45,600 nucleotides of DNA. Origin: Patescibacteria group bacterium. Lineage in GTDB: Bacteria > Patescibacteriota > Minisyncoccia > Phycocordibacterales > UBA9973. Where the stretch lies: NCBI GenBank assembly GCA_038061755.1, contig JBBTYN010000004.1, forward strand, positions 84,373-129,972. Reading direction: 5' to 3'. Position 1 is the first letter of the stretch, and each line of letters opens with the position of its first letter. Below, in pieces: positions 11,407-43,494 of the stretch. A model generated the notes under the pieces. It was not told the origin of the DNA, did not search any database, and worked only from the letters and a program-made list of their open reading frames with translations. Made by a program: the position numbers and the translations under genes.

Positions 11407-11787
11407 TTAAGTCTTACTTTCTTTTCTCTTGCCTGACGCCATTGTTTTTCTAACATTACCTCTAACTGTTCGAGAGTTTGTTTTAGTACGCTGTCCACGA
11501 ACGGGCAATCTTTTTATGTGACGTATTCCTCGATAACTTTTTATATCTTTTAATCTTTTTATATTTGCAGCTGTTTCTCTTTTTAAATTTCCTTCAATTG
11601 ATATCTTTTCCACAATGGAACGAATGCTATTCTCTTCATCTAAAGTCAAATCTTTAGCCTTTTTACCATGATCAATATTAACTTGATCCAAAATTTTACG
11701 AGCAGAAGAAATACCAATACCATAGAGACAAGTCAAACCAATCTCAAGTCTTTTTTCATTTGGCACTGTGATTCCTAATATTCTCAT
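11407..11787 (-). CDS. rpsM: 30S ribosomal protein S13
   Basis: LYGIG, YRGIRH..RLPVRGQRTKTNSRT. Confidence 0.98.
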   Translation of the reverse strand: MRILGITVPNEKRLEIGLTCLYGIGISSARKILDQVNIDHGKKAKDLTLDEENSIRSIVEKISIEGNLKRETAANIKRLKDIKSYRGIRHIKRLPVRGQRTKTNSRTVRGNVRKTMASGKRKESKT

Positions 11788-11790
11788 AAA

Positions 11791-11901
11791 TTATTGTTTT
11801 TGTTTATGTTTAGGGTTAGAACAAATAATCCTCAAATGTCTGGCTCTTTTAACCATTTTACAATTAGCACAATTTTTTTTTACTGCTGATTTTATTTTCA
11901 T
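11791..11901 (-). CDS. rpmJ: 50S ribosomal protein L36 (zinc-binding type)
   Basis: Not in the ORF track. Manual translation [36 protein letters not shown], located between infA and rpsM. Confidence 0.97.
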
Positions 11902-12007
11902 AACAAGATAAAAGAAAAACAAGGAAAATACCCTTATTTTTCAATACTATAACTTTTTAAAATCTATAATTAATATAATACACTATTCTTTAAAAAATTA
12001 CAACCTA

Positions 12008-12241
12008 TTACAATCTTTTGATTATTCTACCTTTTCCACCATAAGAATCAAGCACTATCTCAACTGAATCTCCAATCAAAACTTTAATTCTATGCATTCG
12101 CATTTTTCCTCCTAAATATGCTAAAATTTCTTTCTCTCCTTCTGTTTTATCTTCCATCTTTACTCTAAATAAAGTAGAGGGCAAAGCCTCAGTGACGACT
12201 CCTCTCCCTGTTACTATTTTTTCTTTTCTTGGATCACTCAT
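12008..12241 (-). CDS. infA: translation initiation factor IF-1
   Basis: GVVTEALP..FRV, GKMRMHRIKVLIGD, GRII. Start 12241 has TACAAT 6 nt upstream. Confidence 0.95.
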   Translation of the reverse strand: MSDPRKEKIVTGRGVVTEALPSTLFRVKMEDKTEGEKEILAYLGGKMRMHRIKVLIGDSVEIVLDSYGGKGRIIKRL

Positions 12242-12297
12242 GAATATATTGTATATTATAGTAAAATTAAAGACTATAGTCAAGACAATAAATAATT

Positions 12298-13542
12298 TTA
12301 TTTCGCATAATCCGTTGTTACTTTTATGTTTTTAATTTTACTAGGAAGAAATTGTATCCATGGAGGATTTAATTTTACAAGAACAGAATCAATATTTGGA
12401 TACTGTGATAAAATTTGACTAGAATCTTTTTTTGGTTTATTTAACAAATCAACAGTGAATTTATCTACGTCAAGTTTCCAAACAATTTTTACAGGTCCTG
12501 ATAAATTAAAATTTATATTTTTCACACTATCAAATAAAATACTTTCTTTACCAAAAAGAGAAAAAGTTAAATCTTTGATGTTTGGTATAAAAAGTTCACT
12601 ATTGTCATTATTTTCAATACTGTCTTTTACAATTTTTTGAGTCAGTTTCTGCTCATCAAAAATGATACCATATAAAGTGCCTGGAAGGGTTAAAACTACC
12701 GATCCATCAGTGGATATCGGGCCAACCGTAAGATTATCAGTTTTCAAGAATAAAGCATCTTTGTATAATAAAAATCCTGAAATTTGATTAGAAATTTCAT
12801 TAAAAAGCTTATTTTCTAAAATTGTTTTTAACTCTTTTCCTGTTTCTATTTTTTGTAAGTCACTAACTTGGCGAGCTTTGCCAATAATCCCACCAGTTAT
12901 ATCTCCCATTGATCTACCATAAAATTTTTCATATTTAGTCGTTCCCTTAAAACCAGATATTTTAAAATCAAGCGGAGTACTATTATAGTCTGCTCCTTCT
13001 TTTTCTGCATAAATATCAACACTGACTTGTCCAGGAGTATCATTCTTGCTCATGCCTGGAATTACAATCTTTGTTTTTGTTTTGTAAATTTTACCATTTG
13101 ATCCATCTAAACGTGTATCCACTAAAAGTGTTTGAGGAGATGAACTAAATTTATTATAAAGAATAATCGTACCTTTCGCTTTTTCATTAAAATCTTTTTC
13201 TTCCAAATTGATTGTTTTAGACGCATCTCCAGAGATATGGGTAAGTTCAAAAGATAAAATGTCAGTATTTAAATCAAGACCAGCGGACAAATTTTTATTC
13301 AAAACAATATCTTTTGTTTTTAAAACAACCGAAACTTCCGCCCTAGAAAATAAAAATGAAAATGCAAAAAAACAAAACACCATAGATACTAATGCCACAA
13401 ACCAAAGCATATATCGATATTTATTTTTAGAATACTTAATTTCCGCATCAGCTAAATACTCCATTTTTATTGGTTCTTTTTTGGGGATATACTTTTTATT
13501 ATTTTTCACCCTGACCATGTCTTCTAAGAGATGCTTGGACAT
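12298..13542 (-). CDS. membrane-anchored hypothetical protein (baseplate-J-like domain seen in CPR)
   Basis: One N-terminal TM helix; AKGTIILYN...TRL...GKIYK...VIPG...AEKEGADYN...ITGG. Family call from memory. Confidence 0.55.
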   Translation of the reverse strand: MSKHLLEDMVRVKNNKKYIPKKEPIKMEYLADAEIKYSKNKYRYMLWFVALVSMVFCFFAFSFLFSRAEVSVVLKTKDIVLNKNLSAGLDLNTDILSFELTHISGDASKTINLEEKDFNEKAKGTIILYNKFSSSPQTLLVDTRLDGSNGKIYKTKTKIVIPGMSKNDTPGQVSVDIYAEKEGADYNSTPLDFKISGFKGTTKYEKFYGRSMGDITGGIIGKARQVSDLQKIETGKELKTILENKLFNEISNQISGFLLYKDALFLKTDNLTVGPISTDGSVVLTLPGTLYGIIFDEQKLTQKIVKDSIENNDNSELFIPNIKDLTFSLFGKESILFDSVKNINFNLSGPVKIVWKLDVDKFTVDLLNKPKKDSSQILSQYPNIDSVLVKLNPPWIQFLPSKIKNIKVTTDYAK

Positions 13543-15168: not shown

Positions 15169-15185
15169 ACAAGGGTTACCCTTGT
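15169..15185. repeat. REP family A, copy 1
   Basis: ACAAGGGT-T-ACCCTTGT; contains the stop codon of the adjacent RAYT. Confidence 0.85.
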
Positions 15186-15820
15186 AAAGACAACCAATCA
15201 AACAACTCTCTTTTGTGATCAATGGGAGTTTTAAAATACAAAGGAAATACATTTGTATTTATTATTTTTCTTCTTAATCCAACCTCTGTTATTAAATATT
15301 CTTGCAAACTAGAATATTTATATTCAAATACAAATTTCAATAAATCTTTAGCGAGTTTTGTAGGATTTTTTTTCCAATTTTTATCAATTAACTTAGCAGG
15401 ATTAAGATGGATATATGCGTATAAATATTTAAAATATCGATCATTGTCCATATGAGACGACTTAAAAGTACTTTCATAAAGTCTTCCCGTACGTTTATAT
15501 TTTAAATTAAAATACATAGAGTACGCAGTTAAAAGTTTGAGCATATAAGTCGAAATTCCTTTTTCAATTTTTTCGTACGCTAAAATATGAATATGGTTAG
15601 GCATAAAACAATAAGCACCTATGTCAACAATAGTTTCTCCTCTATCAAAATTTTCTTCTAAACTTTTCATTCTTATGGGCTTTTTTGTGTTACATATATA
15701 CATTAAAAAAAGAAAATATTCATAATCATACTTATCCACAAAAAGTATTCGTTTCTCTATGCCTCGAGTATATAAATGATAATATTCCCCCATTACAAAA
15801 GATATTTTTCTAGTAGCCAT
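15176..15820 (-). mobile_element. REP-associated tyrosine (Y1/HUH) transposase, RAYT 1
   Basis: YYHLYTRG, HUH motif MPNHIHIL, GRLYESTFKS, catalytic YIHLNP, YKYSS; flanked by family A palindromes. Confidence 0.9.
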
Positions 15821-15847
15821 AATTAAAGTATATTTCAAAAATCCAAA

Positions 15848-15872
15848 AATAACAAGGGTAACCCTTGTTATT
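15848..15872. repeat. REP family A, copy 2 (inverted)
   Basis: AATAACAAGGGT-A-ACCCTTGTTATT, abutting the alaS stop. Confidence 0.85.
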
Positions 15873-35210: not shown

Positions 35211-35543
35211 TTATTGACCCAAATTCACTGTTCCCTGTTCTGGATCTATTTGACTCTTTGATATTCCTAAAGTATTTAGAACAATACTAAGAATAGTCCA
35301 AACTCCCATCATAATCGTAATACCAACAATCCCCCACATCATATGACTTTTACCAGTTGTCTTTTTCTCTTCATTCTCTTGATTTGAAAGAAATTCAAAT
35401 ACACCGTAAAGAAAATACACAACAGCTAAAGCAAAAAGAAGTCCAATAATCGGATTTATGATCATGTTATCAACATTTGCAATAAATCCATTCAAGCTCG
35501 TGCTCGCAGCATAAGCTATCTTTGTAGAGAAAAAGTCAATCAT
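35211..35543 (-). CDS. VirB2/TrbC-like pilin
   Basis: IAYA signal, TM-(EEKKTTGKSHMMWGIVG)-TM hairpin. Confidence 0.75.
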   Translation of the reverse strand: MIDFFSTKIAYAASTSLNGFIANVDNMIINPIIGLLFALAVVYFLYGVFEFLSNQENEEKKTTGKSHMMWGIVGITIMMGVWTILSIVLNTLGISKSQIDPEQGTVNLGQ

Positions 35544-35574
35544 CTATATAAAAATTTTATTACCTAATAACTAA

Positions 35575-35955
35575 TTATTGTATTGTCGGTAAAGTAATAT
35601 TTGTACTATTACTGCCAGAAAGACCGAAAGTATTTGTTAAAATATTTACAAGCCCCCACAAAGATACAATAACAGCCAAGCCAATAATACCAGCAATAAT
35701 TTTATTTCTTCCTTTTGTTTTTGCTTCTTCATCAGCAGAAATAACAAAAGAAATAACTCCCCACACAAAATAAACTACCGCTAAGGCAATCAAAACCGGA
35801 ACAACCGAATTAAGAAGTTGCCCAATTTTACACATTACTGAACTTAAATCTGTAATCGTCCCTACACTACAAACGTTACCAGTAGATGCTGCCAATGCAA
35901 CAACTGGCGCTAAGCTTAAAACAAAACTTGATAATACAATTACTTTCTTTTTCAT
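35575..35955 (-). CDS. VirB2/TrbC-like pilin
   Basis: Signal peptide, YFVWGVI...EEAKTKGRNKIIAGIIGLAV..LWGLV. Confidence 0.8.
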   Translation of the reverse strand: MKKKVIVLSSFVLSLAPVVALAASTGNVCSVGTITDLSSVMCKIGQLLNSVVPVLIALAVVYFVWGVISFVISADEEAKTKGRNKIIAGIIGLAVIVSLWGLVNILTNTFGLSGSNSTNITLPTIQ

Positions 35956-36052
35956 AATTTTATAACTAACTTCTAATAATAAATGCGACCTAATAATAAA
36001 CTAATAATATTTTTTAATTATACCTTTTCAAAAGATACGTAGCAAATACTTA

Positions 36053-36715
36053 TTAACAACTCCCTGTTACTGGATCTACCTGACCACCACCAAGACAAGG
36101 ACCCTGAAATAGCTGCGAAGAAGAACTAGAACCCGGAGGAGTAACCTTTGGAAGAATTGAAGTGCCAACACCAAAAGTAACGCCTAGTATTCCTACTAAT
36201 CCCCAAACAGACAACATCACTGCCAAAGCAATAATACCCCAAATCATAAATTGCTTACCTTGAGCTCTTTTTGCTTCTTCATTAGCATTAATTATAAAAA
36301 ACTGTATCACTCCCCAAACAAACATCACGATAGCTACAGCAAAAATCAAAGGAATCACAGCATTGTTAATAATACCAGTGATATAACACAAGACATCTTG
36401 AAATTTTGGATTACCGACGAGAGTACAGGTGGCAGCTGTTCCCGTTAAAGCAGAAAGAGAAGGAGCAGAAATGCTTCCTGAAAAAAAAGTTTTAACAACA
36501 ATATTTACTAGTCCCCACAAACCAACAATAACTGCAAAACCAATCACGCCGTAAATCATTACGTCTTTTCCTTTTTTCTTTGCTTCTTCGCCATCAGCGA
36601 TAACATACTGCACTACTCCCCAAACAAAATAAACTACGCCCAAAGCAACTAAAACTGGAACAATAGAATTAAGAATTTCTTGAAACTTTGATATTACATT
36701 CGTTATATTATTCAT
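36053..36715 (-). CDS. tandem two-domain VirB2/TrbC-like pilin
   Basis: Two copies of FVWGV.Q....EEAK..GK..MI.G.I...V...WGLV. Confidence 0.8.
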   Translation of the reverse strand: MNNITNVISKFQEILNSIVPVLVALGVVYFVWGVVQYVIADGEEAKKKGKDVMIYGVIGFAVIVGLWGLVNIVVKTFFSGSISAPSLSALTGTAATCTLVGNPKFQDVLCYITGIINNAVIPLIFAVAIVMFVWGVIQFFIINANEEAKRAQGKQFMIWGIIALAVMLSVWGLVGILGVTFGVGTSILPKVTPPGSSSSSQLFQGPCLGGGQVDPVTGSC

Positions 36716-37116: not shown

Positions 37117-37743
37117 TTAAAAAGGATTGAAACCAATCCAACTACCACTATAACCTAAAATTGATAATATTGTCCTAATGATTAAAAAAGCAGCCACCGC
37201 AATGATTAGCCCCCAAACTACACTAAAAAAAATACTTTTCGCTCTAGTCCTAGCTCCTGCCGCCTCCCCGCCTGCGGTAAACATAAGAAAACCAGAATAA
37301 GCGAACATTATCGCTGCAATAGGTATAACCATACCATAAAGAATGAATTTTATTACTTTATTTATGAGCGCCATAAAATCATTAAAACCACAACCTTTAT
37401 CACAAGGAACTAAACCTTTTGTAAGGAGTGTTGAAGTAGTAGTGGATGAAGATGTTGAAGTATCTGCGCTATTCGAACCTGAATCTCCTGCTGGGGTTAA
37501 AATATTTGCATTATTTGAACCCTGATCTCCTGCTGGGGCTGGATTGGTTGCACCTGTTTGTTCCCATGACACATATGTGACAAAATCTTCGCACTCATTC
37601 TTTGTTACTGTATAAACTCCATTAGTTGTAGTACAAATTCCTAAAGGATCTGTAGAATTATAATTAAAAGCCAAAGAAAGAGCCGGCATAATAAGTATAA
37701 AAAATATTGAGAGATAAATTATAAATTTTGTGATGTTTTTCAT
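37117..37743 (-). CDS. VirB2/TrbC-like pilin with N-terminal low-complexity extension
   Basis: GLVPC..GC.FNDF, FAYSGFLMFTAGG...RAK...VVWG; internal 14-aa repeat. Confidence 0.8.
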   Translation of the reverse strand: MKNITKFIIYLSIFFILIMPALSLAFNYNSTDPLGICTTTNGVYTVTKNECEDFVTYVSWEQTGATNPAPAGDQGSNNANILTPAGDSGSNSADTSTSSSTTTSTLLTKGLVPCDKGCGFNDFMALINKVIKFILYGMVIPIAAIMFAYSGFLMFTAGGEAAGARTRAKSIFFSVVWGLIIAVAAFLIIRTILSILGYSGSWIGFNPF

Positions 37744-37746
37744 ATT

Positions 37747-39036
37747 TTACTTAAACAATAATAAACTCATCTTAGCACTTGCATCTTTGATCGCATCCGC
37801 CACTGTCATATTATTGGAAATTACTGCATTAATCATTCCACTAAAAATAGCGTCAGTATCTTTCGGTGATGGATCAAGCCAACTCTTCCCATACAATGCT
37901 GAACTGTAAAAAATAGAAGAAAAAGCATCTTGTATTTTAATGCCTAGCAAGTCTCGGCGTGCTGGAGGCACACTTGTCGCCACACTAAACTTTGAAGCAA
38001 AATCCCCTGTTGCCATCAAGCTCGCTGCAAGGAAAGCTGTGCTAATATTTTTGGAAAAAGATGAAATAGCAAGTCCAGTAACCCGAACTCCTGTTAATTT
38101 AAAAGTAGAATTTTTAATTTGAGGCACTCCAGCAACAAAAAAATTTTGATTTGGATTTCTTTTTACTAAGGATTGAAGTTCAGAGGCATATCCAAAATAA
38201 AGAGCTAAATCCTCTCTGGAAAAAGCTTCATCAGAATTTAGAAATGATTTATTCCAAGAATATACAGCATTATTAGGATCTGCAAAATCTGTATAGAATT
38301 TTAAAATTGAAGGAAGGTTAAAATTTCCAATTGATGAATCTAAGGTTGAATTAAAAATTCCATCTTTTTCGTTTATAATAGGGTTGCCAACCTGCATAAA
38401 AAGGGTAGCCAATATGTCTTTAAAATGAATTATATTTGAAGAATATCCGAAGGCTATCGCGCTTTGTGTTATTTTATTTGAATCATCTTTTTTTGTAAGA
38501 GTAGGTGCAACATTTGTCACATCACCCCAATAAGCTGGAGGATAGACTACTCCACTTGCATCAAGGATACTTCTATTGTAATACATCATAAGCGGATCAA
38601 TGGAAATTGGAAAAGCTAAAATTCCTTTGGAAGTTAAAAACACTTCCCCTGCACCGGCAAAATTATTCTTAAATGAGGTTAAAGAATAACTCTCGTATGG
38701 AATAGAAAAAATTTTATCAGTATAATGAAAAACTAAATTATCAGGCAAGAAAAACATATCCGGTCCTGTTCCTGAAGCAGAAGCTTCTAGTAAATCTTGA
38801 TCAAAAGTATCGGTAGATTTCTGCACATAAGTGACAGTAAAAGTAGGATTTGCATTATTAAAATCCTTCATTATAGCAGACATTGTTGCATCTGGTACCG
38901 TCCCCCACAAAACTACTTTACCCAAACTACCAGTACTAGTATTCCCAATTGAAATTACGCCAGAAAAAACTAAAATACCTAAGATAGCTGCAACAATAAA
39001 TATAATTAAAATGATTATTTGAAAATTTCCTTTCAT
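37747..39036 (-). CDS. extracellular solute-binding protein (family 1-like)
   Basis: TM anchor, LWG, GPDMF, PISIDPLMMYYNRSIL, PAYW. Confidence 0.85.
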   Translation of the reverse strand: MKGNFQIIILIIFIVAAILGILVFSGVISIGNTSTGSLGKVVLWGTVPDATMSAIMKDFNNANPTFTVTYVQKSTDTFDQDLLEASASGTGPDMFFLPDNLVFHYTDKIFSIPYESYSLTSFKNNFAGAGEVFLTSKGILAFPISIDPLMMYYNRSILDASGVVYPPAYWGDVTNVAPTLTKKDDSNKITQSAIAFGYSSNIIHFKDILATLFMQVGNPIINEKDGIFNSTLDSSIGNFNLPSILKFYTDFADPNNAVYSWNKSFLNSDEAFSREDLALYFGYASELQSLVKRNPNQNFFVAGVPQIKNSTFKLTGVRVTGLAISSFSKNISTAFLAASLMATGDFASKFSVATSVPPARRDLLGIKIQDAFSSIFYSSALYGKSWLDPSPKDTDAIFSGMINAVISNNMTVADAIKDASAKMSLLLFK

Positions 39037-39097
39037 TGATTTTACAAAATCACGTCGCGCAATTGTCGATTCTGCGGAATCGTGTCGCGTAAGTCCT

Positions 39098-39634
39098 TTA
39101 GGACGCGACCAAGGGCGCGACGCTCTTTATAAGTATCATACCATAATGGTGCTCTCCTACATCAATTTCTCTATCCACAACAAAACCTTTTTTCTTAAAC
39201 ATCTCCAAGGCTTTGTCTTTAGGAATGATAGTATTTCCACTCATAATTGATGATTCGGACCAGTCAATCAACAAAACTCTCCCTTTTAGTTTCAATATTC
39301 TTTTTATTTCTTCAATAAATTTTTCTTTATCTACTACTTGAAAAAGTATGTTTGAAACAATGACGGCATCTACGATGCTATCACCTATTTTTGTACCACC
39401 AATTTTTTCAACATTCCCCCAAAGAATTTCCACATTATTTAAATGGGCATCTTTTGCTTTACTTTTAATGGTCTCTAAAAAATCTTTTTGCAATTCAACC
39501 GCATAAACTTTTCCTCTGGGCACCAACATCCCAGCAGCAATAGAATAATGCCCCGTCCCTGCCCCTAAATCCGCCACAATATTATCTTCTCTTAAGCCAA
39601 ATGCTTTTAAGTTTTTTATTGGGTCAGTGAACAT
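39098..39634 (-). CDS. class I SAM-dependent methyltransferase
   Basis: VADLGAGTG, VYAVE, RILKLKGRVLLIDW. Confidence 0.92.
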   Translation of the reverse strand: MFTDPIKNLKAFGLREDNIVADLGAGTGHYSIAAGMLVPRGKVYAVELQKDFLETIKSKAKDAHLNNVEILWGNVEKIGGTKIGDSIVDAVIVSNILFQVVDKEKFIEEIKRILKLKGRVLLIDWSESSIMSGNTIIPKDKALEMFKKKGFVVDREIDVGEHHYGMILIKSVAPLVAS

Positions 39635-39675
39635 AAGTTAATTATATCCTTTAATTTATAATCTAACAATATCAT

Positions 39676-39696
39676 TGTCAAAGGGCACCTTTGACA
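39676..39696. repeat. REP family B, copy 1
   Basis: TGTCAAAGG-GCA-CCTTTGACA. Confidence 0.9.
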
Positions 39697-39710
39697 TGTA
39701 TAATAAGATC

Positions 39711-40370
39711 ATGAAAAATAGAGATTATAAAAAATCATCTCCAGGAAGTATTCTACATATCTATAATCGTGGCAACAATAAAGAAAAAATATTTCTTTAT
39801 GAACAAGACTATCGAGCTTTTTTATTCCGTCTAGGGCTTTGTTTGGGATTTAACAAAGAAGAACTGGAACAAGAAGAGCTTATGGCTATGCCTTACTCAA
39901 GAATAAGGATAACAAATTCAAACAAAGATAGTTTCAAAATTCACGCATTTGCCTTAATGCCAAATCATTTCCATATATTAATCGAGCAGTTAGAAAATAC
40001 CTCCATAGCAACTTTTATGTTAAAAGTCTGTACTAGCTATGCAAAATATTTAAACAAAAAATACAAAAGAGTTGGTCATGTTTTCCAAGACCAATTCAAG
40101 GCTGTATTGGTAGAAAACAATTCTCAACTAATGTGGTTATCAGCCTATATACATATGAATCCTGTTAAAGACAAAATTGTAACACACCCATCTTTATATA
40201 AATGGTCTAGCTATAACGACTTTATTTTAAATAGAAACCTACCGCTGGTGACCACGGAATTTTTATTATCAGTATTTGCTGGAAAACAAAATTTTGAAAA
40301 AGAAACTTTAAACTTTTTTAAAAAGTCCGATTTGTCAAAGGTGCCCTTTGACACCTCCTTAACTTTTTAA
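39711..40370 (+). mobile_element. REP-associated tyrosine (Y1/HUH) transposase, RAYT 2
   Basis: HIYNRGNNK, LMPNHFHIL, GHVFQDQFKA, YIHMNP, YKWSSY. Start 39711 has TATAAT 6 nt upstream. Confidence 0.9.
40333..40353. repeat. REP family B, copy 2 (inverted, inside the RAYT 3' end)
   Basis: TGTCAAAGG-TGC-CCTTTGACA. Confidence 0.9.
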
Positions 40371-40993
40371 CCCCTTTTAATTTTATAATTTTCTTTAATC
40401 ATCCGTACTATTTCAGGGAATTTGGGCACACGAAAATGGCCGTTTTTACTTCTATAAATTATTATTTTTGCATTGGGTAATTTCACGCGATATTTCTCGG
40501 CGTGAGATACGGGAACAACATTGTCATCCCCAGAAAACATTAATGTAAGATTGGGTGAATTCTTCTGAAGCAGAGATAAATTCTTTTTTAGCTTGAAACC
40601 CCCACCCAAACTCTCCCTTGGAATGGTATTATCAAAAGGAGCACAAACCAGATATGTAGCAAGAATTTTTTTAGGAAACTTATTTTCTGAAAGATATTTC
40701 GCTAAAAAAATCCCGCCAAGAGATTCCCCTATCAAAATTATATTTTTACGCAAATAAGGAAAATGTCTCTCTAAATTAATCTTCCATTCTTCATATTGTG
40801 AATTGTCAGACGAGGGCATGCGTGGATGAATAAGTTGGAATTTTCTGCCGAGTTCTTTATTCAAATATTCTTGTCGCCAATGCAAATCTTTATCTATCGA
40901 GATCTTACGTGTTTTTAAGTATCGTAAATAATCCTTGTGTTTTTTAAACGTACTGCCTCCGTGTATAACGAATATTTGTGGTTTGGATTTCAT
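40367..40993 (-). CDS. alpha/beta hydrolase (RBBP9/YdeN-like)
   Basis: VIHGG, nucleophile GESLGG, DDNVVP, GHF. Start revised to 40993. Confidence 0.88.
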   Translation of the reverse strand: MKSKPQIFVIHGGSTFKKHKDYLRYLKTRKISIDKDLHWRQEYLNKELGRKFQLIHPRMPSSDNSQYEEWKINLERHFPYLRKNIILIGESLGGIFLAKYLSENKFPKKILATYLVCAPFDNTIPRESLGGGFKLKKNLSLLQKNSPNLTLMFSGDDNVVPVSHAEKYRVKLPNAKIIIYRSKNGHFRVPKFPEIVRMIKENYKIKRG

Positions 40994-41001
40994 ATACTGA
41001 T

Positions 41002-41022
41002 TGTCAAAGGTGCCCTTTGACA
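41002..41022. repeat. REP family B, copy 3
   Basis: TGTCAAAGG-TGC-CCTTTGACA, between the gyrA stop and the hydrolase start. Confidence 0.9.
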
Positions 41023-41031
41023 AGTGAAAAC

Positions 41032-43494
41032 CTATATACAAGCCAAAGATGCAATTCCGTCTCCCTGACGCAGACGCATTATGGTCACACCTTGAGTCTG
41101 ACGACCAAGAGATGAAATATCTTTTAATGCTGTACGAATTACTTGCCCCTTCTTAGACATCGCAATCAATTCCTGTTCTTCCCCGGTTAATACTTTAGCC
41201 ACAATGAGCTTGCCCGTCTTGGTTGTTACTTTTGCTGTCTTTACACCTGAGCCACCACGCTTTTGAACTTTATATTCTTTCAAGCTAGTCTTTTTTCCAA
41301 AGCCATTTGCACTCATTGTTAAAAAGGCACTTTTTTCGGTATTTTTCTTTACAACATCAACTCCAATAACTTCATCATTTTTACTGAGCCTGATACCACT
41401 TACCCCTCCAGCTGTTCTACCCATTTCGCGAACATCAGATTCTTTAAATCTAATAGATTGACCTGCGGCTGTCGCAATCATAACTTCATCGCCTTTTTCT
41501 GTCATTAACGCAGAGATAAGCTGATCATCTTTATCAAGCCGAATGGCAATGATTCCGCTTCTGCGCACATCTTTGAAACTTTCCGAAGACATTTTTTTTG
41601 CTGTGCCACGCCTTGTTACCAACATTAATGAAGTCCCTGTTTTACCATTATCTTTTGGCATCGCCAAAATTGAATTAACTTTTTCCTCACCAGAAAGTGA
41701 AAGAAAATTCATTATTGATTTACCTTTGGTCGCACGACGTCCTTCTGGAATCTCATACATTTTCATTTGATAAACCTTCCCAAGATTTGTAAAGAAAAGT
41801 AAATTACTATGAGTAGAACCAGAAACAAGCATTGTCACAAAATCTTCTTCTTTAGTTTCAAGATCAACTACTCCCACTCCTCCTCTTTTTTGGGCATGAT
41901 ATTCAGAGGGGTCTGTACATTTTACATAACCACCAGCAGTAAGCACAAGCATCGTCTCTTTTTCTGGAACTAAATCCTCATCAGAAATTTCTTTCACTCC
42001 GCCTTTCACTATTTTTGTTCGGCGCTCATCTACATATTTTTCTCGAACTTCTTTCAATTCTAGCGCAATTATTTTCTGTATTTTTTTAGGACTTGATAAT
42101 AAATCTTTCATTTCTGCAATAAATTTTTGTTTTTCGATTAACTCATCTTCTACAGATTTTCTCTCAAGTCCTGCGAGCTTTGCTAATTTCATTTCCAAAA
42201 TCGCCGTGGCTTGCAAATCTGAAAACTTGAATTCTTTCATTAAGTTCAGCTTAGCAATTTGAGAATTCTTTGAAGCACGGATAACAGTAATAACACGATC
42301 TATTTTATCCAATGCCTTTTTTAAACCGAGCAATATATGTTCACGTTCTTGCGCTCTTCTTAAATCATACGCTGACCTGCGCTTCACAACTTCTTTTCTG
42401 TGTTCAATAAAAAGAGAGAGTATTGATTTAAGCGACAATGTCTGAGGGACGCCATCCACCAGTGCAACCATATTAAAATTAAAATTTGATTCAAGTTGAG
42501 TATTTTTATAAATATAATTTAAAACTTTTTCCGGATGAGCACTGCTTTTTAAGTCAATAACAATTCTGATATCTTTAGTGGATTCATCGCGAAGTCCTTT
42601 GATTCCTTCCAGCTTTTTTCCTTGAACTAACTCTGCGATACTTACTATTAAATTAGATTTATTTACTCGAAAAGGAATTGACGTAATGATAATAGAAAAG
42701 TTGCCATCTTTTTGCTCCACTATCTCTGCTTCACCTCTACATACAACCCCACCTCGTCCTGATCCATATGCATGAAGCATGTCTTTGTACCCATAAGCAA
42801 TTCCACCAGTCGGAAAATCCGGCCCTTTTATAAATTGCATTAAATCTTCTATTGTTGCATCACTATTTTCAATTAAATAAATAGTTGCGTCCAACACTTC
42901 TGCTAAATTATGAGAAGGAATGTTCGTCGCCATGCCTACGGCAATACCTAAGGTGCCATTTAAAAGCAAAGCTGGAACATTTGAGGGAAACACTATTGGT
43001 TCCTTGCGAGTTTGGTCATAGTTTGGACGAAAATCAACTGTCTCTTTTTCTAAATCACGCAAAAGTTCTCCTGAGATTTTAGACATTTTTGCTTCGGTAT
43101 AACGCATCGCAGCAGCATTGTCTCCGTCAATAGAACCAAAATTTCCCTGTCCTAAAACAAGAGGGTAACGATAAGAAAATTCCTGTGCCATTCCAACCAT
43201 AGAATCATAAACAGCCGTATCCCCGTGTGGATGATATTTTCCAAGCACATCTCCCACAATGGCTGCAGATTTTCGGAAACGTGCAGAAGAAGTGAGTCCC
43301 ATTTCGTTCATCGCAAATAAAATCCTGCGATGAACAGGTTTTAATCCATCTCTAACATCCGGCAAGGCGCGAGAAGTAATAACAGACATTGCATAAGCAA
43401 GATAAGATTCTTTCATTTCTACCACGACATCAACTGGTAGAATTGTATCTGTTCTTATTTCTCCATTTATTTCTGGTGTAGACTTTTTTGCCAT
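41032..43494 (-). CDS. gyrA: DNA gyrase subunit A
   Basis: [23 protein letters not shown], GyrA-box QKRGGVG, beta-pinwheel repeats. Confidence 0.98.

Follow-up and report, generated by a model that had tools for sequence, protein, structure and literature searches.

A RAYT transposase gene flanked by cognate palindromes occupies a fixed site beside gyrA and adjoins a variable gene slot in a genus of Patescibacteria

Repetitive extragenic palindromes (REPs) and the REP-associated tyrosine transposases (RAYTs) that go with them were reportedly treated by Nunvar (2010) and Ton-Hoang (2012), both cited by Bertels, Gallie and Rainey in 2017. In the latter paper, the REP-RAYT systems ("REPtrons") of Proteobacteria are represented by the E. 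coli TnpA-REP with its REP/BIME (bacterial interspersed mosaic element) repeats (PDB 4ER8) and by the Pseudomonas fluorescens RAYTs with their REPINs (REP doublets forming hairpins), and RAYTs appear as widespread, single-copy "domesticated" transposases whose retention by the host is an open question (Bertels, Gallie and Rainey 2017, PMC5581495). Literature searches yielded no description of REP-RAYT systems in Patescibacteria, and the sole RAYT paper they returned that mentions the candidate phyla radiation (CPR) places a RAYT only beside an archaeal rbcL gene. Here we analyse a 45,600-nucleotide stretch of DNA (the window; assembly GCA_038061755.1, contig JBBTYN010000004.1, positions 84,373 to 129,972) from a Ca. 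Nomurabacteria-like groundwater bacterium of the Patescibacteria/CPR, whose genome of about 0.58 Mb (G000) comprises 576,619 bp in 16 contigs at 34% G+C and is 95% complete. At window positions 39676-41022, between gyrA and a methyltransferase gene, a RAYT gene (RAYT2) and an accessory hydrolase gene are set among three identical 21-bp palindromes, and we consider it somewhat probable that these 1.35 kb represent a REP-RAYT module that has captured a single accessory gene, with segments entering and leaving at the REP hairpin.

A search of the window for the pattern TGTCAAAGG-NNN-CCTTTGACA returned three matches, all with 0 mismatches where up to 2 were permitted, and 0 matches in 100 shuffles. 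The loops read GCA at 39676-39696, TGC at 40333-40353 and TGC at 41002-41022, so that copy 1 has the opposite orientation to copies 2 and 3, the outer pair being inverted and the pair around the hydrolase direct. An earlier note on this DNA had described three exact palindromes in this arrangement together with the reading frames, a TTGTCA -35-like box supplied ahead of the RAYT, and a palindrome inside the 3' end of the RAYT read as SKVPFDT; each of these descriptions was confirmed, as the following list of features sets out.

39098-39634, minus strand: gene for an S-adenosylmethionine (SAM)-dependent methyltransferase, left neighbour of the module (Pfam Methyltransf_31/11/25; synteny)
39641-39669, minus strand: methyltransferase promoter-like site TTGTTA-17-TATAAT, just outside palindrome 1 (10 of 12 matches; a consensus match only)
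39675-39704, plus strand: putative RAYT2 promoter, TTGTCA-18-TATAAT (11 of 12 matches)
39676-39696, no strand: REP copy 1 (TGTCAAAGG-GCA-CCTTTGACA), the 5' palindrome of RAYT2, within the spacer of its promoter-like site
39711-40370, plus strand: RAYT2, a 219-residue Y1 HUH transposase of the RAYT/TnpA-REP kind (Pfam PF01797, E 5.9e-11)
40333-40353, no strand: REP copy 2 (loop TGC), the 3' palindrome of RAYT2, in its last codons and encoding LSKVPFDT
40367-40993, minus strand: the cargo, a gene for a 208-residue serine alpha/beta-hydrolase co-oriented with gyrA (Pfam PF06821, Ser_hydrolase, E 7.6e-9)
41002-41022, no strand: REP copy 3 (loop TGC, in the same direction as copy 2), separating the gyrA stop codon from the hydrolase start
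41032-43494, minus strand: gyrA, right neighbour of the module (Pfam DNA_topoisoIV and DNA_gyraseA_C; synteny)

Folded as single-stranded DNA, each copy gives a stem of 9-10 bp closed by a loop of 3 nt, at -7.7 to -9.0 kcal/mol and with z-scores from -4.7 to -5.6. The TTGTCA-18-TATAAT site is the best promoter-like site of the region, and the RAYT2 start codon lies 6 nt past its -10 box, which makes a leaderless mRNA likely. On the other side of palindrome 1, the TATAAT-like box ahead of the methyltransferase ATG is retained in the empty sites of relatives. Copy 3 lies 9 nt beyond the gyrA stop codon and 8 nt ahead of the hydrolase start; this 8-nt gap scored no promoter-like site, and we infer that the G000 hydrolase is transcribed from the gyrA transcript. 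No Rfam family was found within 38500-42000, and a reading of the palindromes as terminators was set aside, the single weak terminator-like site, which overlaps palindrome 2, being no more than shuffles give.

RAYT2 is a Y1 HUH transposase of the RAYT (TnpA-REP) kind by its fold, its motifs and its flanking cognate palindromes, and on the same grounds the proposal in the earlier note of a RAYT-REP unit is well founded. The protein passes the cut-off of Pfam Y1_Tnp (PF01797; 43 bits against 23), and its sole NCBIfam match is REP_Tyr_transpos (NF047646; 61.3 bits, E 8.9e-17). The HUH motif is found at N85-H86-F87-H88 and the catalytic tyrosine, Tyr146, in YIHMNP; in an alignment of 34 sequences (RAYT2, 30 orthologues and 3 paralogues), N85, H86 and H88 of the HUH motif and Y146, H148 and N150 of YxHxNP are invariant, and in a weak match (E 0.4) these motifs align with PEHMH and YIYINPVK of 4er8. 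The AlphaFold model of RAYT2 (predicted local distance difference test, pLDDT, 84.2; predicted template modelling score, pTM, 0.84) has as its top Foldseek match 4er8_A, the E. coli TnpA-REP on a REP hairpin (E 1.0e-6; TM 0.54 by query and 0.70 by target), and ranks 2-25 are taken by IS608, ISDra2 and IS200 TnpA. In most orthologues the 3' palindrome is read as VKxxL and its TGA is the stop codon (...VKxxL*); G000 RAYT2 reads it in a different frame (LSKVPFDT) and ends 11 codons later, where its stop overlaps that of the hydrolase (TTAA).

The palindrome is not limited to this locus, as had been supposed, since the G000 genome holds 14 family copies at 10 loci (16 matches with up to 4 mismatches, of which 14 were counted as members): three copies in the RAYT2 locus, three single copies and four inverted doublets. 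The latter are REPIN-like, with spacers of 4-6 nt, and form perfect hairpins of 21-23 bp, that is, long palindromes; for the doublet in purH the folding energy is -28.2 kcal/mol (z -10.8). The 16-mers of the family are found 5-7 times and its 14-mers 9 times, which places them among the most frequent words of the genome. This picture resembles the REP-RAYT systems in many respects: the Y1 HUH fold with its motif and its catalytic tyrosine, a gene present once and in a conserved position, a cognate short palindrome on its flanks whose words are among the most frequent of the genome, inverted palindrome doublets, and several paralogous RAYTs, each with its own palindrome. It differs in that the host is a 0.58-Mb Patescibacteria genome, in that half of the repeat loci lie inside genes and in frame, in that the palindromes are part of the RAYT promoter and supply its stop codon, and in the hypervariable cargo slot attached to the RAYT2 module. 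The copy number, 14, is also very low, far under the mean of 41 given for RAYTs in PMC5581495.

Five of the 10 loci lie inside long open reading frames (ORFs) and are read in frame, in PurH, Dus, RNase HI (rnhA) and two others, and the family is to that extent not extragenic. The purH doublet, outside the window at C4:50167-50214 (L115:593-640), adds 17 in-frame residues (PLPKMPFDILMSKGIFG), and exactly these 17 codons are missing from the PurH orthologue of G077 (83% identical), a clean indel. At the position of this doublet the PurH of G095 carries a 9-residue xSKxxFDx insert, which suggests recurrent insertion at a single purH site. An alignment of G000 RNase HI with that of E. coli leaves a 9-residue gap at the palindrome; the Dus insert is ambiguous even with close relatives. 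Alignments of PurH and Dus to Protein Data Bank (PDB) structures gave no clean insert boundaries, the inserts lying in variable linkers, and close relatives were used instead. Rickettsia palindromic elements, which are 100-150 bp long and have no known dedicated transposase, are similar in that in-frame palindromic repeats are tolerated in housekeeping genes (in G000, purH, dus and rnhA), whereas the G000 units measure 21-51 bp and are tied to a RAYT gene.

Among the 211 other genomes that make up the genus sample, 50 carry a RAYT2 orthologue (E 1e-60 or better, 59-70% identity), and all but one of these (49 of 50) have a single copy, the exception being G071. Synteny was examined at 52 loci, G000 included. 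The methyltransferase gene lies 5' and gyrA 3' of RAYT2 at 43 of them; seven have one of the two neighbours (three stop before gyrA, three begin at RAYT2 and G008 has no methyltransferase gene), mostly at contig ends, and two have neither (G188 and the second G071 copy). The module thus sits at a fixed site between the gyrA stop codon and the methyltransferase promoter, by synteny in 50 of 52 loci. Nearly every orthologous locus has one palindrome 10-35 nt ahead of the RAYT2 start codon and a second at the 3' end of RAYT2. The stems, TGTCAA[AG]G / C[TC]TTGACA, are preserved from species to species and the 5-nt centre is species-specific; the centre that flanks RAYT2 recurs in the dispersed copies of the same genome, in 8 of 8 in G017, 5 of 6 in G007, 7 of 8 in G024 and 8 of 12 in G003 (TGTCAAAG-type). 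A centre common to flanking and dispersed copies fits ongoing spread or homogenisation of the palindrome within each lineage. Two promoter layouts recur around the 5' palindrome of the orthologues, with the start codon 6-8 nt past the -10 box. As a separate observation, many orthologous loci (L010-L083) bear a DnaA-box-like motif, TTATCCACA, TTATCAACA or TTATTAACA, in the stretch from the methyltransferase start to the 5' palindrome, 10-25 nt ahead of the latter; G000 has no clear copy.

We then considered the other side of the module, measuring slot length from where the RAYT2 alignment ends to the 3' end of gyrA at the 47 loci with both genes. The slot is empty (60 bp or less) in 15 of these and filled (245-1342 bp) in 32. 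Twenty-nine filled slots hold an ORF of at least 60 residues, and these ORFs form 23 sequence clusters. Pfam assigns to them SAM methyltransferases (8 loci), DUF6122/YdjM (2), a 2-hydroxyacid dehydrogenase, an isochorismatase, RraB, a GTP cyclohydrolase II, a cupin, a NUDIX protein, a glutamine amidotransferase fragment, and lycopene-cyclase-like and PsbP-like proteins; several have no family, and the hydrolase is slot cargo in G000 alone. No close homologue of the cargo of other species was found in G000. The longest slot ORF is co-oriented with gyrA in 28 of 29 cases, the exception being a DDE transposase in G139. Of the 32 filled slots, 12 have a third perfect palindrome, which lies between the cargo and gyrA.

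Under one rival account, all this would be an ordinary REP-RAYT module with an incidental hot spot beside it: the convergent ends downstream of gyrA would be a neutral landing pad, genes would arrive by illegitimate recombination or by homologous exchange with congeners, the RAYT would have no part in cargo turnover, and the palindromes would be later arrivals in new intergenic gaps, serving as punctuation, terminators or mRNA-stabilising hairpins. We rate this account as somewhat unlikely. Selection for expression alone would also be expected to produce the co-orientation with gyrA. On the other hand, the hydrolase of G000 lies between identical and direct palindromes, and the family has only 14 copies in 577 kb; genomes without RAYT2 provide a more direct comparison.

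Thirty such genomes of the genus were chosen before their loci had been seen, and the locus reached the methyltransferase gene in 29. The gap between the two genes is 10-110 bp in 27 of the 29, and gyrA and methyltransferase genes are adjacent in all of three further RAYT2-less genomes (G009, G012 and G002), so that gyrA abuts the methyltransferase gene in 30 of 32. These empty gyrA ends speak against a hot spot that is indifferent to the RAYT, and so does one of the two exceptions. In G029 the gap is 411 bp; in G015 (L105, 2419-2968), which has no RAYT2 orthologue, a NUDIX gene flanked by two family palindromes lies between gyrA and the methyltransferase gene, and this may be the remnant of a lost module. 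The comparison of the gyrA-methyltransferase interval across relatives, which the earlier note had put forward, therefore yields both empty sites and different cargo. Its proposal that the unit captures or exchanges cargo genes accordingly stands in one part, as the slot cargo differs among relatives and is absent where RAYT2 is absent; the RAYT or its hairpins may be what causes the capture.

To control for shared ancestry, a flank tree was built from the gyrA C-terminus and the methyltransferase (474 columns) for 74 of 85 loci, 11 having been dropped for short or missing parts; 14 of its 71 inner branches are well supported. On this tree the presence of RAYT2 must have changed 20 times or more, with at least 9 of these events on branches that are well supported, and the cargo at least 30 times. 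Among about 9 independent pairs that differ in RAYT2, slot filling differs in the same way in about 7, in the opposite way in 0 and not at all in about 2 (median p 0.016). Slot filling is thus associated with RAYT2 presence, and this 7:0 contrast is a further point against an incidental hot spot. G000 itself falls in a well-supported set of 10 rows, of which 7 have no RAYT2 and the other 3 carry the hydrolase, a NUDIX gene and DUF6122. In its nearest relatives on the flank tree the unit is missing altogether, and only 7-45 nt separate gyrA from the start of the methyltransferase gene; relative to them, the entire 39676-41022 unit is therefore an indel.

The absence of the entire unit from the closest flank relatives would also be expected if the unit (REP3-hydrolase-REP2-RAYT2-REP1) were an autonomous IS200/IS605-like transposon with a passenger, inserted whole at a preferred target beside gyrA. 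The patchy presence of RAYT2, with the changes counted above, agrees with this, as do the inverted palindromes that bound the unit and the supported clades of the RAYT2 tree that are at odds with the flank tree. IS200/IS605 elements (IS608, ISDra2, IS200 TnpA) share the transposase fold and have genes bounded by subterminal hairpins, and they are the expected source of the single-strand "peel and paste" chemistry. However, RAYT2 is not multi-copy and has no near-identical copies: one copy per genome is the rule in 49 of 50, 50 of 52 loci are at the same site, fixed across 50 species, and the paralogues within G000 are only 27-38% identical. There is no tnpB, and the end hairpins of RAYT2 have the same sequence and are also dispersed alone through the genome. 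Moreover, RAYT2 is paired with other cargo in nearly every species. The tree of RAYT2 has little resolution, with good support for 4 of 47 inner branches, and the grouping of G000, G095 and G229 expected from vertical descent is not rejected (approximately unbiased test, p-AU 0.07); RAYT2 may have undergone repeated loss or been transferred between species. The ends of IS200/IS605 elements are not known to be simple inverted repeats, which counts against this account as well. Taken together, we regard insertion of the unit as a whole transposon as very unlikely.

If the hydrolase were an old neighbour of gyrA, it should be found beside it in genomes without the RAYT; the earlier note had named stable synteny of this kind as the finding that would overturn its reading. 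Hydrolase orthologues (65-72% identical) occur in G009, G025, G012 and G002, all without RAYT2, and in none of these 4 congeners is the gene near gyrA, the methyltransferase gene or RAYT2; in G009 it is part of a mur-like cluster at a distance of 8 kb, in the place taken by murI in G000. The same holds for 80 metagenome loci with hydrolase homologues (63-74% identical), of which 0 have gyrA, RAYT2 or the methyltransferase gene in the fetched flanks. The reading of the earlier note thus withstands this check. Since the gene is never beside gyrA elsewhere, its position in G000 is derived and so far unique, and the gene is a lineage-specific cargo. None of the 80 metagenome loci carries the family palindrome, and no palindromes flank the hydrolase in G009, G012, G002 or G025, one related palindrome being found 200 nt off in the next gene of G009. 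The contexts of the gene are varied, the commonest (the G009 type) accounting for 6 of the 80 metagenome loci. That the hydrolase changes neighbours with no palindromes nearby is a point in favour of the incidental hot spot.

A search for excision products was made in the contigs of four public sequencing runs from three studies (X1, the possible source; X5 and X8 of study P2; X9 of study P3), over the region 38800-42200. The arrangement of G000 is present in the contigs of all four runs, and one X5 contig spans 39255-41197 with 0 differences, so that the arrangement exists in an independent study. Apparent 39696-to-40333 "joints" in run contigs turned out to be REPIN doublets from other places, with flanking sequences that the G000 assembly does not contain. 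Strain variants were sought in metagenome contigs by an exact junction word of 32 nt, which had no match.

In the reading that we favour, the promoter spacer and the 3' end of the single-copy RAYT2 gene are built into two cognate 21-bp hairpins. By analogy with TnpA-REP and IS608 TnpA, RAYT2 probably recognises the hairpin in single-stranded DNA, where it would cleave and rejoin the strand at the hairpin foot and so disperse singlet REPs and REPIN-like doublets over the genome. The hydrolase gene, together with the third REP, occupies the hypervariable slot between the 3' REP of the module and gyrA, where DNA segments would enter and leave at the hairpin next to RAYT2, either through strand transfer catalysed by the RAYT or through recombination of REP copies with one another. 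If a circle with a single REP integrated into the resident REP, identical direct copies would remain on either side of its cargo, as are found around the G000 hydrolase. The data show the class of the enzyme, its cognate hairpins, a fixed site, and a variable slot that goes with RAYT2; that RAYT2 or its hairpins move the cargo we infer.

Several results weigh against this reading. At the level of the slot, 20 of the 32 filled slots have no perfect third palindrome, and the palindromes around RAYT2 and its cargo are direct, inverted or unlike in sequence, depending on the species; in our reading of the loci, the pair flanking RAYT2 is direct in about 14, inverted in about 19 and of different sequence in about 8. 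Cargo between direct repeats, which the earlier note had taken from G000, is not the rule. In no case did a cargo gene recur elsewhere together with its palindromes, and a candidate for a cassette shared by two species was rejected, the NUDIX cargos of G015 and G229 being only 23% identical. No contig of the four runs contains a joint that skips the hydrolase (40354-41022) or a circle joint, such as the earlier note had looked to, although contigs cannot reveal rare forms. The phylogenetic contrasts rest on a weak tree of 474 columns with 31 of 71 inner branches unsupported, and the association could be indirect, the convergent gene end made by the module simply tolerating insertions. With regard to the family itself, RAYT2 scores under the curated equivalog cut-off of NF047646 (61 against 80 bits), a difference from described RAYTs, and the G000 repeats lack the GTAG/GTGG tetranucleotide that classical REPs have at the 5' foot of the hairpin, as described in PMC6006769; by eye, no tetranucleotide is conserved next to the six single copies. 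Given the inconsistent orientation, the missing second palindromes and the lack of an excision joint, the view that the RAYT merely neighbours an incidental hot spot keeps substantial weight.

A stronger form of the favoured reading would make RAYT2 and its hairpins a gene-capture platform, a functional analogue of an integron built on an HUH single-strand nuclease and REP hairpins in place of a tyrosine recombinase and attC sites. Accessory genes would be inserted at the RAYT-side hairpin downstream of gyrA, be read from the gyrA transcript and be exchanged among Nomurabacteria-like species. We regard this extension as unlikely. Integrons consist of a fixed platform with a variable position, and their co-oriented, promoterless cassettes have as boundaries the attC hairpin palindromes, imperfect or perfect, that are recombined as folded single strands. 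The present locus is similar in its fixed platform by a variable position, its co-oriented cargo, which in G000 lacks a promoter-like site, and the hairpin-forming palindromes at its boundaries. In contrast to integrons, no IntI tyrosine recombinase is encoded among the adjoining genes (methyltransferase, Y1 transposase, hydrolase and gyrA; the rest of the genome was not searched), and the enzyme belongs to the HUH nucleases; the slot usually carries a single cargo gene and no array, many cargos have no second palindrome, and no cassette is seen at two sites.

The earlier note had also assigned each RAYT its own repeat. G000 has five RAYT-like genes with a mutual identity of 27-38%, and four of them are each flanked by a palindrome of their own, which agrees with that claim; the RAYT2 repeat, in turn, is not confined to its gene but dispersed in its 14 copies. 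Apart from RAYT2, the genes with palindromes are as follows.

15176-15838, minus strand: RAYT1, a paralogue (30% identity), with its own palindrome ACAAGGGT-W-ACCCTTGT at 15169-15185 and 15852-15868
Contig C1: RAYT-like gene with flanking palindrome AATCGAGG-GGAGT-CCTCGATT
Contig C2 (L120, C2:57500-62000): RAYT-like gene with palindrome CTAGCTAGGAC-A-GTCCTAGCTAG at C2:58892, 59600 and 60653

Two of the C2 palindromes flank the RAYT gene and the third encloses a 253-residue ORF without a Pfam family, which amounts to a second three-palindrome layout. RAYT-like genes are frequent in the group, with matches in 44 of 61 relatives and up to 12 matches per genome.

A RAYT module at one fixed site in about one quarter of a large CPR genus is thus tied, in phylogenetically independent contrasts, to a slot whose accessory genes are replaced more quickly than species diverge, and the idea that REP/RAYT systems promote local gene exchange becomes directly testable. 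The gene-capture platform, if true, would provide a concrete host-level role for RAYTs, whose benefit to the host lacks an explanation. The locus is also relevant to the acquisition of accessory genes by ultra-small genomes, in which classical mobile elements are few, and to the way in which hairpin repeats become written into essential proteins.

Some further repeats and insertions were seen alongside. Eight copies of GGCTGACGAGCC-GAG, some with similar flanks, lie on G000 contigs C2, C4, C5 and C7 (e.g., C2:32304, 102901, 103810 and 106626); their CTGACGAG core recalls hammerhead ribozymes. The gyrA of G012 (L040, contig C3, about 11455-12446) is interrupted by about 1 kb between approximately residues 96 and 165 in G000 numbering, which could be an intein or another intervening element. 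In the window, positions 35398-36697 hold a 212-nt direct repeat (72% identical) and seven related 37-nt segments in three adjacent minus-strand ORFs, resembling tandem paralogous small genes, and two 42-nt tandem units (79% identical) lie at 37454-37537, within the minus-strand ORF 37117-37743.

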